Both the position numbers and the translations under genes were made by a program. Below the pieces are notes generated by a model that was not told the DNA's origin, searched no databases, and was given only the letters and a program-made list of their open reading frames with translations. Shown in pieces: positions 31,573-45,095 of a DNA stretch of 64,000 nucleotides. Numbering within the stretch: position 1 is the stretch's first letter; every line of letters starts with the position of its first letter. Where the stretch lies: positions 31,800 to 95,799 of the IMG/VR virus record IMGVR_UViG_3300027741_000040. The stretch is one strand, 5' to 3'. The stretch is from a virus.

Positions 31573-31905
31573 TCATTTATCTTTAGAGTCTTTACCCGAC
31601 CACTTATACCATCCTCTATTTGGAAGATATGTTCCATCATCATCTTTTCTCTTTGGAAAGAGAGTCCCTCCCTTTTTGTGTTGTCCAAAAGAAAGTACGG
31701 CTCCACAATCATTACATTTTAATTCATAATAATCGTTGCCTTCCACATTTCTGCAAACATACTTTATGCTGGTCTTATTGCACAAACCACATTTGTCCTC
31801 ACTAAAGATTTCTTGAATTGTAGCGAGTTCTTTAAAGACTTCTTTTTGTCCTGTTCCTTCTAATTCAAACTGTAATTTATCATTAGCTCTGTATAGAATT
31901 TTCAT
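31573..31905 (-). CDS. Zinc-ribbon hypothetical protein
   Basis: CGLC...CNDC; ATG 31905 lies 2 nt after the upstream stop and is preferred over 31917. Confidence 0.65.
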   Translation of the reverse strand: MKILYRANDKLQFELEGTGQKEVFKELATIQEIFSEDKCGLCNKTSIKYVCRNVEGNDYYELKCNDCGAVLSFGQHKKGGTLFPKRKDDDGTYLPNRGWYKWSGKDSKDK

Positions 31906-39638: not shown

Positions 39639-39666
39639 ATTATAGCTCAGTGAGCACCCGTGTCAA
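39639..39666 (-). promoter_or_regulatory. Consensus sigma70-type promoter for ssb, with palindrome in the spacer
   Basis: TTGACA (39666-39661), 16-nt spacer, TATAAT (39644-39639); spacer contains GCTCA-C-TGAGC. Confidence 0.8.
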
Positions 39667-41288
39667 GAAACGGGCAGAAAACATTTTTCTACAACAAAGC
39701 TATCTTTTGCCTTGCTTCTGCTACCTAAAAAAACCAGAATATTACCATTAAATAGATGGTCTTTATATTTAGCAAATTGGTCAGGAAAGAAGATCACGGA
39801 GTCTAGCATTCCAAATTGATCTTCTAAAGTTATGAATGCCATTTCTTGACCAGGATTTTTGCCTGTTTTAGTTTTTGTTATACTAATATTTGAGATTTCT
39901 GCTGCCATAATAATATTACTAGATAAACTAGAACTTTTAAATTCTTTGCAATTAGTATTAGACATAGTTATGTCATACGAGTCTAATCTAGAACATGTGA
40001 TGGCTACTCCTAGGAGAGAACTCTCAGAATCCGATAACCATTCGATCTTATCTAGTAAGGAATACGGGGGCTTATCTAATGAGCCAATTAGGCCTTGGAT
40101 TACAGTCTTCCTATTTTTGTTTATCTTTTCAGATAATAATAACGAAAAAATATCTCTAATTTTTTTGGAAGGAAATGTTTTAGCTAAATTTGTAAAGTGT
40201 TCTGATTCTTTATTGCTTAAACTGCTCACTACTCCATATTCAAATAACATTTCTGTTCTTGTTTTTTTAAAATAGTCTAATGCCCCACAAGATATTAGAG
40301 CTTTGCTTGCAGTGGAATTGATCTTTAATAAGATTTGAGACAGAGTTTGCGACCATGATAGTGTTTTTAAGTCTAATGTTTCTGATATTGACAGTATTTT
40401 ATTATATACTGACTTTCCAACCCCCTTAATATCTGTTAATCCAAAATAGATCGCTTTATCTTTGAGAATAAATAATTCATTCAAATTTCTTAAATCGGGA
40501 ATATGAACAATAATATCCATCTCTGTAGCATTTCGTACTAATTCTTTAATTTCCTGCTGTGGATCTATTTTATCCTTTGCGTACCTTAAGTATGATGCAA
40601 AGAAGATCTTTGGAAAATGGGCCTTTGTGTATGCAGATAAGTAGGCGTTCATTGCATATGAAACACCATGGGACTTATTAAAAGAATATCTCTGAGACTT
40701 TTCAATCCAACTAAAAATAGCCTCAGCTTCTTCTCTCGTTACAATTTTAAATTTATCTGTGCCTTCTAGAAATTTTTGTTTTATTTTAGCCATTTCTTCT
40801 GGTTTCTTTTTCCCAATAGCCTTTCTTAAAGCGTCTGCTTCTTGCAGATTAAATCCCGCTAGATCTTTGGCTATCGACATGGCCTGTTCTTGATAAATCA
40901 TTTCTCCATATGTGGACCCTAAACATTTTTCTAAAGAGGGATGGAAATAATCTACAGATTCCAACCCATTCTTTTTGTCTATATAGTGATTAGATACGCT
41001 TTTCCCTTCTCTAAAAGCTTCAAGACAACCCGGCCTAAGAATACTAATCAATCCAGATAGCTGCTCAATATTTTCTGGCTTAAGTTTTTTAGACATAGTT
41101 TGTCCAAGTCTTGACTCAAGTTGAAAACATCCTTTGGTATTACCAGAAGAAATCAGATCCCAAGTTCTTGAGCATTCAAGATTCAAGCTCTCTAACTTTG
41201 GAGAGAATAATATTTTGGGAAATTGAATATCTTGTTTATCCAAAACTGGAAATTTACAACCACAATCAAATGTATAATATTCAGACAT
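39663..41288 (-). CDS. dnaE: DNA polymerase III alpha, C-terminal part (fingers, HhH, OB)
   Basis: GCFQLES, RPG, YQEQ, ADALRKAIGKK, YSFNKSH, FGLTDIKGVG, MAFITLED. Confidence 0.9.
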   Translation of the reverse strand: MSEYYTFDCGCKFPVLDKQDIQFPKILFSPKLESLNLECSRTWDLISSGNTKGCFQLESRLGQTMSKKLKPENIEQLSGLISILRPGCLEAFREGKSVSNHYIDKKNGLESVDYFHPSLEKCLGSTYGEMIYQEQAMSIAKDLAGFNLQEADALRKAIGKKKPEEMAKIKQKFLEGTDKFKIVTREEAEAIFSWIEKSQRYSFNKSHGVSYAMNAYLSAYTKAHFPKIFFASYLRYAKDKIDPQQEIKELVRNATEMDIIVHIPDLRNLNELFILKDKAIYFGLTDIKGVGKSVYNKILSISETLDLKTLSWSQTLSQILLKINSTASKALISCGALDYFKKTRTEMLFEYGVVSSLSNKESEHFTNLAKTFPSKKIRDIFSLLLSEKINKNRKTVIQGLIGSLDKPPYSLLDKIEWLSDSESSLLGVAITCSRLDSYDITMSNTNCKEFKSSSLSSNIIMAAEISNISITKTKTGKNPGQEMAFITLEDQFGMLDSVIFFPDQFAKYKDHLFNGNILVFLGSRSKAKDSFVVEKCFLPVS

Positions 41289-41982
41289 TGGCTTTGTTAA
41301 AAGATCCTTTGAATTTTACTTTTGAGCTAACATTGCGATGGAGCTTCATAAATCTTATTAGTATTTCTGCTGTGTCTCTAACATCCTTTAAAGCATCATG
41401 AGACCCTTCCGTGGAAATACCAAAATATCCTCTTAGGTTATCTAATGTATAATTCTTAAGTTCGTTATTTCCTTCGAACCAGTAGAAGATCATATTCATT
41501 AAATCTATGACATCTCTTGGATAGAATAAGCTACTTCTTTTTTCTTTATTGAGATTATTGTATTTAACACTTAATCTTTCTATGATTCTCATATCGTATC
41601 TGTTGATATTGTACCCTGCAGCAATAGGTGCTGTAAAACAAGATTTCTTATCAGACCTAATATGATACATTTCTAAATAAGAGACAAACATTTTCCATCC
41701 CTGGTCTTGCTTTTGGTGTCCTTTCCATTGGTCTAAAATATCTTGTTTAGAGCAACCTCTAACCTTGGAATGAAAATCCAGAACATCACTATCTGCATAG
41801 GCATATTCAGAATCCTTTTCTAAAAGTTCTGGTCTCATATTAATGTTAAATTCAGAATCTTGCACTATCTCAAGCCTAAAGGGGTCAATGATAAGTGCGG
41901 CAATTTGTACGGGACTACAGATATCGGGATTAATTCCATCTGTCTCGAAATCAAACACACAAATTTTTTGAGAATTAGCCAT
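41281..41982 (-). CDS. DEDDh 3'-5' exonuclease (DnaQ/epsilon-like)
   Basis: ExoI FDFETDG, ExoII GYNINRYD, ExoIII HDALKD. Confidence 0.88.
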   Translation of the reverse strand: MANSQKICVFDFETDGINPDICSPVQIAALIIDPFRLEIVQDSEFNINMRPELLEKDSEYAYADSDVLDFHSKVRGCSKQDILDQWKGHQKQDQGWKMFVSYLEMYHIRSDKKSCFTAPIAAGYNINRYDMRIIERLSVKYNNLNKEKRSSLFYPRDVIDLMNMIFYWFEGNNELKNYTLDNLRGYFGISTEGSHDALKDVRDTAEILIRFMKLHRNVSSKVKFKGSFNKANV

Positions 41983-42154
41983 TTACCTCTACCAGAGTAT
42001 TGCCGGGGAAAAAAGTTTTATTACTAGCGTTGCCAGCAGTCTCGGCATTAATAGACCTGCAACAGCTTACCTTGACCTCATCAACCTTCTTATATTCAAC
42101 ACCATTCACTACAAATGTGGCATTGACAGGAACATCGCTTAATAGTTTTTGCAT
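41975..42154 (-). CDS. Small hypothetical protein (59 aa), below the ORF-track cutoff
   Basis: MQKLLSDVPVNATFVVNGVEYKKVDEVKVSCCRSINAETAGNASNKTFFPGNTLVEVNG; AAGGAG SD; fills the gap between dnaE-N and the exonuclease. Confidence 0.75.
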   Translation of the reverse strand: MQKLLSDVPVNATFVVNGVEYKKVDEVKVSCCRSINAETAGNASNKTFFPGNTLVEVNG

Positions 42155-42155
42155 A

Positions 42156-44041
42156 TTATTCTCCTTTTTCTAAAATGTCTGTTATGGTCATAATCTTATC
42201 TAACATTGCAACACCCAAAATATCAAATTTTATTACACCCAAATCCTCAAGATCCTGCATCTCCATTCCGGCGATAAGTTGATCGTTTTTTGTATCGTAA
42301 ATCATCGGACAAACATCGGATAAGTCCTGAATACTAATAGCAATTCCTGCTGCATGTTTTGATTGATTAGACTTTACTCCCTCTAAACGTATTGCCTGTT
42401 CAAATCTTTTAGCTAGAGGACCAGACAGCTCATTATCATCATTAATATAGCACCAGTCTTTGAGTTTGTCAACATTGTTTTCTAACGCCCACCTGATAAT
42501 CGATGCTTCACCGGTTTCTTCTTTCATTTCTTGAAGTTCATCTGCTATTTTGGCTTCATCTGGTATAAACTTTGTGATTTTATTCATCTCGTCAAATGAT
42601 ATATTACCATATACTCTTAAGACTTCTTTAAGTGCGCCTCTGCCTTTCATCGTATTATACGTAATCATTTGTGATACTTTATTGTATCCGTATTTATCCT
42701 TAATATACTTGATAATCTCTTCTCTTTTATTTATTGGCACATCGACATCAATATCTGGCATGGAAATTCTATCAGACGTATTGCGTCCAGTATTATAGAA
42801 TCTCTCAAATATTAAATCATATTTTATAGGATCTATAGAAGTGATCCCAATTAAATACGAAACCAGACATCCTGCCGCACTTCCTCTCCCTGGACCAGGA
42901 AGCCAATTATTCTCTCTAACATAACGCAGAATATCTTGGACAATTAAAAAATAGCTAGAAAGACCAGCGCCTTGTAACACTTCTAGTTCATGTTTGATCC
43001 TTTCTGTGTATTGTGGCTGTTTGTCTTCTGGTATATGGTTCTTGATCTTTTCTCTCCATCCACGACGACATAGTTCTCTTAAGTATTCATCTGGATTAAG
43101 ATTATTTGGACATTCAAACTTAGGTAACATGGGCTTGTGTAGAATATCATAACTTTCACACATACTATCAACCAAATTAGTATTATCTATTTCTTCTTCT
43201 GTGTGAAGTTCTCTAATTTCTTGTGGAGACAAGATGTAATATTTATCAGATCTGAAGAAACAATCCATCATTATATCTTCATTATTTAGAATCTTTTTAT
43301 TAATATCGACTAAAGTTGTCTTTAGATTGTTGCATAATAGTATCCTTTGATCAACAGCGTCTTCTTGAGCACAATAATGTGCATCTGGGGTACATATGAC
43401 TTTGGTGTGGGTATTCTGGCCCAAGTCTCTTATAATCTTAGTCAAAGCTATTTGTTGTGGCAGATATTCTTGGTCCATAAGCTGGGCCTCTAGAAAGAAA
43501 TTATCCTTACCAAATATATCTTTCATATGAGAGATAAATTCTGTGCCAATCTTATTGGCGTTATCTGGATCTTCCATAAGCTTATAAGCCAGTGTGGATC
43601 CTAAATGTCCACAGAATCCTAAAATATTACCATCTAAATATCGAGCTAATTTATCAAAACTTAATCTTGGTTTATGATAAAAGTTGTCTTTATTATTAGA
43701 TTCTGAAACTAAACTAACTAGGTTATGCCAACCTTGTTTATTCTTAGCCAGGACTATGAAGTGTGTTAGTTTTGCATTTTCCTTAGTCTTAATTGTTGAA
43801 TCATCATTACTAATATATAGCTCGCAACCCAGAATAGGCTTAATATTCTTAGCTTTGAGTGATTTATAAAACTGCACTGCTCCAGAAATTGATCCATGAT
43901 CTGTTATTGCACAAGATCTTAGTCCTAAAGCTTGACATCTAGCAGCTATTTGAGCTGGCTTACTTAGTCCATCCAAAAGTGAATAATGAGATTCACCTAA
44001 GAATGGACATGCAGAGGAGTATATACCTTTGTCATGTCCAT
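42156..44041 (-). CDS. dnaE: DNA polymerase III alpha, N-terminal part (PHP, palm, thumb); reading frame interrupted after codon 14
   Basis: TDHG, GCE, DAHY, GRGSAAG, PDIDVD, HAAG, KFDILG. The missing N-terminus MDMTKVYTPLHVHS is encoded at 44041-44000 behind AAGGAG and joins HYSLLDG if 43999-43989 is skipped (624 aa). Confidence 0.88.
43989..44041 (-). other. Candidate translational bypass element in dnaE (5' hairpin, UCU take-off, UAG, UCU landing)
   Basis: mRNA CAU GUC CAU UCU UAG GUGAA UCU CAU UAU UCA; 9-bp inverted repeat 44041-44033/44011-44003. Confidence 0.65.
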
Positions 44042-44054
44042 CTATTTTGTCTCC

Positions 44055-45095
44055 TTATGTTGTGCCTGGGGCTTTGTACTTACCGAATGTATGACCAGAG
44101 TGCTTATATAGGTCTACGACATTATTGATCCCATAAAGTTCTACATCGTGCTTAACCTGTTCGCACTTACTCATTATTGATCCGTTGGAACATGTCTGAT
44201 TATCCCTGTATTCTACTATAGCTGGTATTGATGAATTTTCAAATGTGGTTTTACCAAAATGACACAATTTATTACACATCCAGCTTTTGTGTAGTTTTGG
44301 CCTCTTGGTGTTCTTAATAATTTCAAATTTATCTCTAAGCATATCTTCTGTTTTACTTAAATCAGAATCATCAAAACAAATCGAAAATGGACCACCATCA
44401 TTGATAAAGTATATCGAAAAAATTATGTGCTGAATATGTGGAAACAAATGCTTAATAGCGTAATGATATATTCTAAGTTGCGGATCACTCTCTAGTTTCT
44501 CTTGCGTTTTTTCTTTTCCCGTAGCCCAATCTAGCCTTCGTCCCGTTTTCCAGTCGATGACTTCTATGGTATTATCGTCAACAAGAGTGATCAAGTCAAT
44601 AGTGCCTTTTAAAGCTAAATTTCCGCTCAGCTTACCTTCTGATGTATCAAAAGAATATTTTGCCCAATTTTTCTTTATTTCAAAATCAAAGTGCTGTTCT
44701 GGACACAATATATTTCTATTGCGAGGATCAAACATACCATTATTAAATTCTATTGCTTTATATACCCAACTATGACAGTCTTTATAGTCTTTTGGCGACC
44801 ATTTATGATGACTGGAGCTATTAGAGTAGTATGTATATACTTGTTCAATAATTGTATTTAGATTATATTGATTGATGTCTAGTTTGCCAACAATATCGTC
44901 TACAATAGTATCTTGTTTATTCTGTTGGGCCTGTTTGATAACGGCTAGTATTTCTAATACTTTATGAACTATTGTTCCTTTGTCTGCCTTTTGTCCAGAC
45001 GGCCCTCTCCATCCGAGTACGTACTCAAGGAAATATTGTTGTTCACAAAGAGAATGGGTATTAAAAGAACTGCTACGAAAATAAGTTATGATAAT
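44055..45095 (-). CDS. Cas4/AddB-like PD-(D/E)XK nuclease with probable Fe-S cluster; probable ATT start
   Basis: Frame open from 45095 through ATG 44735 without stops, adding (M)IITYFRSSSFNTHSLCEQQYFLEYVLG...KGTIVHKVLE. Core GTIDL...VIDWKTG, QLRIY, C-terminal CNKLC; GAGGAG 8 nt before ATT. Confidence 0.8.
   Translation of the reverse strand: MIITYFRSSSFNTHSLCEQQYFLEYVLGWRGPSGQKADKGTIVHKVLEILAVIKQAQQNKQDTIVDDIVGKLDINQYNLNTIIEQVYTYYSNSSSHHKWSPKDYKDCHSWVYKAIEFNNGMFDPRNRNILCPEQHFDFEIKKNWAKYSFDTSEGKLSGNLALKGTIDLITLVDDNTIEVIDWKTGRRLDWATGKEKTQEKLESDPQLRIYHYAIKHLFPHIQHIIFSIYFINDGGPFSICFDDSDLSKTEDMLRDKFEIIKNTKRPKLHKSWMCNKLCHFGKTTFENSSIPAIVEYRDNQTCSNGSIMSKCEQVKHDVELYGINNVVDLYKHSGHTFGKYKAPGTT

Follow-up and report, generated by a model that had tools for sequence, protein, structure and literature searches.

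How does a phage make its replicative DNA polymerase when a catalytic motif of the gene is broken by a stop codon? The question is raised by dnaE in IMG/VR virus record IMGVR_UViG_3300027741_000040, of which we analyzed 64,000 nucleotides (nt) (positions 31,800 to 95,799; this whole stretch is called the window, and coordinates refer to it). An earlier note, made from the letters alone, had pointed to an 11-nt gap near the 5' end of this minus-strand gene and proposed that ribosomes hop over it. Comparison with relatives now makes programmed translational bypass, by a short Ser-to-Ser ribosomal hop, the best explanation of the locus and one that we hold with good confidence. The same comparative evidence supports the hop over the micro-intron, frameshift and assembly error that the note had set beside it.

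The interrupted start of dnaE

On the minus strand, a Shine-Dalgarno sequence read from the letters (AAGGAG, 44056-44051) is followed after a 9-nt spacer by the ATG (44041-44039) of a mini-open reading frame (mini-ORF) of 14 codons (44000..44041), MDMTKVYTPLHVHS, encoded as ATG GAC ATG ACA AAG GTA TAT ACT CCT CTG CAT GTC CAT TCT. This short frame carries the HxH metal-ligand motif of the PHP domain. Its last codon, UCU for Ser14 (44002-44000), is the putative take-off codon and abuts a UAG stop (43999-43997). The stop opens a coding gap of 11 nt, UAGGUGAAUCU (43989..43999), which is putatively untranslated and consists of TAG (43999-43997), GTGAA (43996-43992) and TCT (43991-43989), the final triplet being the putative landing codon UCU (43989..43991). 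Directly after the gap, a second frame reads CAT TAT TCA CTT TTG GAT GGA (HYSLLDGLSK...) and stays open to a stop at 42158-42156. These 610 codons and their stop (42156..43988) encode the N-terminal part of DnaE, with its PHP and DNA_pol3_alpha domains. Rereading confirmed every coordinate of the Shine-Dalgarno sequence, mini-ORF, stop, gap and resumed frame.

Pfam recognizes PF02811 (PHP, 1.3e-34) and PF07733 (8.1e-74) in the resumed frame. In the window the PF02811 match enters at profile position 7, on residue 1 of the resumed frame, whereas in relatives without a gap it enters at position 2, on LHVHS, which fills positions 2-6. The profile is continuous only across the gap, so skipping exactly 11 nt makes the motif whole again, neither adding nor dropping a residue. 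Both the exact skip and the placing of the PHP HxH ligands in the upstream 14 codons, as proposed in the earlier note, are thereby borne out.

The interruption is not confined to the window. Relatives were first gathered through protein words far downstream in DnaE, which yielded 38 IMG/VR loci; 12 of them are interrupted at the same codon junction and the remaining 26 read through unbroken as M..Y.PLHVHSHYSLLDG. A pattern scan of IMG/VR that required a stop after the Ser codon (scan A) returned 47 loci. A second scan (scan B) accepted any 3-29 nt after the Ser codon, with no stop demanded, and returned 49, all of whose inserts open with a stop; the two loci beyond scan A use TGA. Further divergent lineages came from a metagenome scan, with mini-ORFs such as MAANFISLHCHS and MVMWIPLHNHS. 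The deduplicated set holds 45 distinct cassettes and 31 distinct take-off-plus-gap types, with the stop always present and always at the same junction. Such recurrence goes far beyond chance. Since the gap is carried by dozens of independent, sequence-distinct assemblies, an assembly error, which the earlier note had entertained, is excluded, and the 610-codon resumed frame is intact in every full-length locus. Among 185,579 bacterial and archaeal genomes, one per species, the cassette pattern had no match.

The leader is part of the pattern. Gap-bearing relatives keep an AGGAG-type Shine-Dalgarno sequence and spacer before the mini-ORF, and in the window the first two bases of AAGGAG are shared with the TAA (44057-44055) of an upstream PD-(D/E)XK nuclease gene. 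In gapless relatives, the dnaE start overlaps the stop of the upstream gene as ATGA.

Within the gap itself, length is the most fluid property. Among the 31 types it measures 8 nt in 2, 9 nt in 8, 10 nt in 7, 11 nt in 9, 12 nt in 4 and 14 nt in 1, and all three frame offsets (0, +1, +2) between the two open reading frames occur. Closely related sequences differ in gap length by single nucleotides, at least 15 changes of length fall on the DnaE tree, and single-nucleotide insertions and deletions are tolerated in the gap and nowhere else in the gene. The first triplet is always a stop (TAG in 17 types, TAA in 11, TGA in 3). The take-off codon is TCT in 22 types and TCC in 9, and thus UCU or UCC in 45/45 cassettes, whereas gapless relatives use TCA, TCG and AGT as well. 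The last triplet is TCT in 17 types, TCA in 7, TCC in 2 and ACT in 5; that is, UCN in 26/31 types, the window included, and ACU in 5/31. One extra case at a contig end finishes in GCT. The second base is always C, and no earlier UCN triplet lies within any gap.

Skipping the gap always yields HVHS|HYSLLDG, as gapless relatives read. Across the 45 cassettes the Leu at position -5 is always Leu through five synonymous codons, the His at -4 is CAT or CAC, and the His, His and Ser of the mini-ORF are invariant as residues; on the far side, where the first 7 downstream codons were examined, the codons for His, Tyr/Phe, Ser, Leu and Leu show synonymous changes only. Such synonymous-only change at the conserved residues on both sides of the gap excludes the one-off inactivating insertion that the earlier note had allowed for. 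The substitution pattern indicates that both flanks are translated, each in its own frame, and that the gap is not translated as such; it also indicates that the stop is under selection, being always the first triplet and kept through exchanges among TAG, TAA and TGA. Taken together, the frame offsets, the stop and the constraint on the flanks can be reconciled only with a mechanism that ignores frame and leaves the gap out.

Two relatives (loci L143 and L151) have an ordinary-looking dnaE with an in-frame His-Ser duplication (HLHSHSHYSLLDG), which indicates that a two-residue insertion at this junction can exist in some DnaE proteins.

Two covarying helices around the gap

Two stem-loops flank the junction. 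Helix 1 pairs a 5' arm formed by the start codon and codons 2-3 (AUGGACAUG, 44033..44041) with 44011-44003, a 3' arm formed by codons 11-13, His-Val-His (CAUGUCCAU, 44003..44011), that abuts the take-off codon; both arms are on the minus strand. It is present in all 45-48 gapped variants and in none of 16 distinct gapless relatives. Covariation was counted on a plain MAFFT alignment, unfitted to structure, in which 98% of helix 1 cells are paired and 3/9 pairs change on both sides. The compensatory changes run from AUG/CAU to GUG/CAC and from GAC/GUC to GCA/UGC, GUU/AAC and GUA/UGC, and they determine which amino acids stand at positions 2-3 and in the middle of HxH (V, C or N).

Helix 2, the take-off stem-loop, is built from the AG of the stop with the gap (AGGUGAAU, 43991..43998) and a 3' arm in the Tyr-Ser-Leu codons (AUUCACUU, 43977..43984), again on the minus strand. 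Its apical loop in the window, CUCAUU (43985..43990), is made up of the landing triplet's final two bases, the CAU with which decoding would resume, and a U. The loop spans 6-10 nt in most types and, by a contiguous-helix measure, 3 or 11 nt in a few, and it nearly always holds the end of the landing triplet and CAY. Gap and downstream arm covary as GUGAAU/AUUCAC, GUGGGU/ACUCAC, GCGAAU/AUUCGC, UAACGA/UCGUUA and UAGAGAAU/AUUCUCUA, with the downstream partners at synonymous sites such as UAU/UAC and UCA/UCG/UCU. In the MAFFT alignment 93.4% of cells are paired, against 34-53% with slid partners. Changes on both sides of a pair number 39, against 11.9 +/- 2.5 in shuffles (0/500), although the sequences are all related and shuffle statistics therefore overstate independence. 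Native combinations of gap and downstream arm fold at a mean of -7.8 kcal/mol, compared with -5.1 kcal/mol when swapped, a loss of 2.7 kcal/mol; the native value was reached in 0/1000 permutations. The 99-nt element of the window folds into exactly helix 1 and helix 2 (-26.4 kcal/mol, z = -2.5), and Rfam has no family match to it at E <= 1.

At the base of helix 2 the take-off codon is itself drawn into the structure. A downstream GGA on the minus strand (43972..43974; the last base of UUG and the GA of GAU) complements UCY and forms three pairs with it in the minimum-free-energy structures of nearly all variants. GGA is invariant, so this pairing gives no covariation signal; the same letters spell the GGA anticodon for Ser. 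The stem lengthens with the gap, from 5-6 base pairs at 8-9 nt up to 11 base pairs at 14 nt, so the last gap triplet always straddles the stem top, and its first base is always paired (U-A, A-U or G-C). Variants ending in xCU have an out-of-frame UCA 2 nt further on. Short gaps seem to trade hairpin stability against a cognate landing codon.

The weak hairpin that the earlier note had drawn, AUUC with GAAU and the stop in its loop, is not the structure that is conserved. Variants of 8 and 9 nt are unable to form it, and covariation places the partner downstream, in the pairing of AGGUGAAU with AUUCACUU. We also rejected an internal Shine-Dalgarno sequence in the gap: AGGUGA, AGGGGA and AAGGAA are purine-rich, CGACU-type gaps are not, and such stretches lie 0-3 nt before the landing triplet.

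A proposed ribosomal hop and its rivals

From these comparisons we infer the hop, its exact landing register, its efficiency and the roles of the two helices. Ribosomes would start at AUG 44041, decode 14 codons and pause, the P site holding peptidyl-tRNA-Ser on UCU 44002-44000 and the A site the UAG. Helix 2, re-forming around the A site, should impede access of release factor and, because the take-off UCY pairs with the downstream GGA, would compete with the anticodon for the take-off codon. Helix 1 would form once the 9 nt before take-off clear the exit channel. Exposing those 9 nt requires the mRNA to shift by about the gap length, so folding of helix 1 could pull the mRNA forward; it could also act as a ratchet that blocks back-sliding. 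A forward slide driven by exit-side folding has been proposed for gene 60 of phage T4, as outlined in bioRxiv 10.1101/2024.12.09.627546. At the tip of helix 2, the peptidyl-tRNA would then re-pair with UCU 43991-43989, leaving decoding to resume at CAU 43988 with the His-tRNA that reads CAY. The product would be a single polypeptide with its LHVHS-HYSLLDG PHP motif intact and the junction peptide VYTPLHVHSHYSLLDGLSK. Helix 1 also buries the start codon, and the stop of the upstream gene lies 14 nt before the AUG, which suggests, speculatively, translational coupling.

Several observations weigh against this account. The matched take-off and landing codons that the earlier note described hold in the window (UCU/UCU) and, as UCN, in 26/31 types, but fail in the 5/31 types that end in ACU and in the contig-end case with GCU, where the Ser anticodon is matched at 2/3 positions only. 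Because the first base of the last triplet is paired in helix 2, the matched-codon signal could in part reflect RNA structure, and the related ancestry of the sequences tempers the shuffle statistics given above. The nascent peptide has 14 residues, far fewer than the gene 60 signal, and a landing codon within the take-off hairpin is an arrangement without tested precedent. No phage-encoded tRNA-Ser accompanies the element, the 95.8-kb genome having no tRNA genes; the element is likewise found in no bacterial genome among the 185,579 bacterial and archaeal species searched. Finally, Ser, Thr and Ala are all small, so the last triplet may add one residue.

That last point belongs to the nearest rival, a hop with another landing register, in which peptidyl-tRNA-Ser would settle on the penultimate triplet with no cognate pairing and the last triplet would be decoded in the A site to give HVHS-[S/T/A]-HYS and the junction peptide VYTPLHVHSSHYSLLDGLSK. 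It would account for a triplet that encodes small residues throughout, and with the first base of that triplet paired in helix 2, selection for an anticodon match need not be invoked. Neither gapless relatives nor the Pfam PHP profile has a residue at that place, however; the penultimate triplet (GAA, GGG, GAG, GUG, CGA or ACG) cannot pair with a Ser anticodon, and 26/31 types match the take-off codon, all of which makes this register unlikely. Less probable still is a separate recoding event for each length class, with a -1/+2 frameshift for gaps of 8, 11 and 14 nt, a +1 frameshift for 10 nt and readthrough for 9 and 12 nt, each adding 2-4 residues to the PHP motif. The -1 frame of the window is indeed open across the gap (TTA GGT GAA TCT, or LGES), and a hairpin beyond the shift site resembles a frameshift stimulator. 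Yet there is no slippery site (X XXY YYZ or CUU U-type) at CAU UCU UAG, and a Ser-tRNA on UCU is unable to re-pair with UUC or CUU. Each 1-nt insertion or deletion in the gap would demand a new mechanism; given that length has changed at least 15 times, close relatives would have had to acquire three unrelated mechanisms again and again, and the added residues would vary in number and kind within a motif that is invariant in gapless relatives. The single -1 frameshift with an LGES insertion that the earlier note had considered is not the common mechanism, since sister gaps of 8, 9, 10, 11, 12 and 14 nt span all frame offsets. Plain stop-codon readthrough was rejected as well: the 11-nt gap of the window is out of frame, and the 9- and 12-nt variants alone are in frame.

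Removal of the gap before translation is, in our judgment, very improbable. Such a micro-intron would be cut from the mRNA by an endonuclease and a ligase acting on the hairpins, and it would suit the conserved RNA structure around the gap, the 3-nt direct repeat (UCY...UCN) which, in most variants, makes the exact point of excision uncertain, and the common company of homing endonucleases with introns or inteins. An intron has no need of a first-triplet stop maintained through TAG, TAA and TGA changes, and at 8-14 nt the gap is much shorter than any self-splicing intron known; Rfam match, intron core and bulge-helix-bulge are all lacking, and the inclusion of the start codon in helix 1 suits a device acting at translation. 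We give the same slight chance to the absence of any fusion, whereby the mini-ORF would make a 14-residue micro-peptide, DnaE would arise by re-initiation (e.g., at UUG 43976) without its HxH, and the gap would be a tolerated scar left by a homing endonuclease. The longest conventional open reading frame does open at UUG 43976, and 8- and 9-nt GUGACU variants have a GUG in frame with dnaE. Against this, CUG replaces that UUG in two lineages, most variants have no in-frame start between the gap and LLDG, and protein-level constraint on Y.PLHxHS and His-Tyr-Ser in 45 cassettes would be pointless if these residues were cut from the enzyme. A sequencing or assembly artefact, or a dead gene, has nothing in its favor beyond the broken frame itself and is scarcely credible beside the many independent assemblies and the resumed frame intact in all full-length loci.

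Returning to the Ser-to-Ser hop, we tentatively suggest something bolder, which we rate as possible and somewhat short of an even chance: that this is the smallest natural bypass module, a portable device of ~80 nt with a 14-residue chain, in which RNA geometry, and not a full anticodon match, sets the point of resumption. Two hairpins would replace the long peptide signal, 50-nt gap and mini-Shine-Dalgarno sequence of gene 60. The exit-side hairpin would move the mRNA by about the length of its own arm, and the take-off hairpin would present the resumption site in its loop. Resumption set by geometry would explain the ACU and GCU variants. Such a module would let homing endonucleases break an invariant coding motif and still leave the gene alive.

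Mobile nucleases, neighboring genes and known bypass systems

In some relatives the junction lies beside a mobile nuclease. An HNH gene (~240 aa) separates dnaE from the upstream nuclease gene in L010 (one contig with L068 and L193), L058, L086, L087 (the same as L138), L098 and L166. Its last codons overlap the start of the mini-ORF, at least 5 different gap types are represented, and it matches phage HNH/endonuclease VII families (phrog_3322, 7e-22; phrog_374, 7e-17). Loci L097 and L106 retain only a 34-aa HNH remnant. The genome of the window has no trace of the HNH gene and keeps the same leader of Shine-Dalgarno sequence, spacer and AUG.

The gap would be a trace left by an HNH homing-endonuclease cassette after its invasion of the DNA of a conserved motif, the nuclease gene being later lost in the lineage of the window. 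By analogy, the gap may protect against cleavage by the nuclease. On a DnaE-N tree from a quick IQ-TREE search, gapped and gapless sequences interleave, with at least 7 changes between the two states. An approximately unbiased test rejects a single gapped/gapless split (p = 4e-5, for a group named after seeing the tree). Sliding-window identity downstream of the gap, in which a co-conversion tract was sought, is 60-80% and uninformative at that level.

Other nuclease genes lie nearby in some relatives. A more distant HNH-like gene (L004:1302-1808; L005/L006:1246-1794), 28-32% identical to the L010 nuclease, occurs in the TAAGTGGGTCA lineage 1.2-1.7 kb upstream of the gap; it does not adjoin dnaE and sits between genes of the replication module. 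In L083 the N-terminal dnaE gene is broken a second time, ~1.27 kb beyond the HYS codon in the catalytic PDIDVD region. The insert there encodes a LAGLIDADG-type protein and is probably an intron or similar, and the upstream PD-(D/E)XK gene of the same locus (L083:1274-3328), at 684 aa, holds a LAGLIDADG_3 domain. It seems that mobile nucleases often target the conserved motifs of this replication module.

The PD-(D/E)XK gene of the window (44055-45095, minus strand) has an unusual start of its own. It apparently begins with ATT (45095-45093), not ATG, 8 nt after GAGGAG (45109-45104). L001, L002 and L024 share the ATT and L007 has ATA, while in other relatives the protein begins M-I-I/V-T-Y-F-R-S-S with ATG; as a result of the non-ATG start, ORF finders report just 226 of ~347 codons. 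The polymerase is additionally split into two genes (39663-43988, minus strand), both in the window and in every relative inspected. A 59-aa ORF (41975-42154) that matches no family and a gene for a DnaQ/RNase T-like exonuclease (41281-41982) separate DnaE-N (PHP and palm; 42156-43988, minus) from DnaE-C (fingers, HhH and OB; 39663-41288, minus). A split intein joining the two halves was rejected, as the ends are too short.

The phage genome (G000) is a single contig of 95,799 nt with 35% G+C and no terminal repeat by an exact-match test. Other copies of the gap motif in it are chance in-frame matches and nothing else. Isolated phages gave no nucleotide match, the INPHARED collection holds no close relative, and relatives found by protein search of isolated phages are all <35% identical across full length.

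Full-text literature searches returned no report of bypassing in dnaE, in agreement with the earlier note, which knew of no such element described in a DnaE. To our knowledge, T4 gene 60 is essentially the one bacterial case of efficient programmed bypassing that has been studied well, to which the mitochondrial byps can be added. If the hop is true, there is an independent bypass family in a second essential gene and the phenomenon is not a T4 curiosity; bypassing would be a response that recurs when homing endonucleases invade invariant coding motifs. The dozens of variants, differing in gap length (8-14 nt), stop, landing triplet and hairpins, are a natural mutational series that could separate the roles of exit-side folding, A-site hairpins and landing-site pairing. 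Its small size (~80 nt) makes the element tractable in reporters, PURE-system translation and cryo-electron microscopy. In practical terms, gene calling leaves the replicase of these phages split or cut short, and annotation pipelines should be taught the pattern.

Among known systems, short hopping over stops, non-programmed or synthetic, has reportedly been seen in Escherichia coli, and there minimal landing-site pairing can suffice. As proposed for the dnaE element, a peptidyl-tRNA passes over a stop plus a few nucleotides and settles on a codon that matches fully or in part. E. coli hopping differs in being of low efficiency or dependent on mutant or engineered tRNAs, without dedicated RNA structure, whereas here an essential phage gene would depend on the event and two covarying hairpins accompany it. 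The byp elements said to interrupt mitochondrial genes of Magnusiomyces capitatus are likewise short untranslated inserts whose take-off and landing sites match and which have a poorly decodable A-site codon, and tolerate imperfect matches. They are 27-55 nt long, number dozens per mitochondrial genome, belong to a eukaryotic organelle and have no link to homing endonucleases, unlike the dnaE element, which occupies one site in one gene of bacteriophages. A candidate for UUA-to-UUA bypassing in Streptomyces phages is outlined in RNA Biol 2023, PMC10732093. As far as that outline goes, it too is a phage bypass proposed from comparative sequence alone, and it concerns another gene, codon and host group.

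The closest parallel is T4 gene 60, whose bypass and associated MobA cassette are reportedly well described. In both systems the stop directly follows the take-off codon, the landing codon matches or wobble-matches it (here in 26/31 types), take-off codon and stop lie in a stem-loop, and a 5' stem-loop is able to form behind the ribosome. In both, the gap falls within a catalytic, metal-binding motif that is invariant in an essential replication enzyme, and the distribution is patchy, with a free-standing HNH-type nuclease gene, here beside the gap in some relatives, that is often lost while the gap stays. For MobA and gene 60, the bypass often outlasts the nuclease, whose own target the insert disrupts (bioRxiv 10.1101/2022.08.31.505936).

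The differences are equally clear. The dnaE element, described here from sequence, lies in a PHP domain and not in the Toprim domain of a topoisomerase II large subunit, with no sequence homology between the two. Its gap of 8-14 nt is four to six times shorter than the ~50 nt of gene 60, it would use tRNA-Ser (UCY) in place of Gly or Asp, and it has no clear mini-Shine-Dalgarno sequence 6 nt before landing. The nascent chain has 14 residues as against 46; it is conserved here, and PHP function and helix 1 constrain the same residues. Landing would occur in the apical loop of the take-off hairpin rather than well beyond it. The 5' stem-loop of dnaE includes the start codon and is strongly conserved, unlike that of gene 60 homologues, which is poorly conserved (Manning & Atkins, bioRxiv 10.1101/2022.08.31.505936). 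By its anatomy and pattern of conservation, then, the dnaE element appears to work like gene 60, yet it is not a member of that family.

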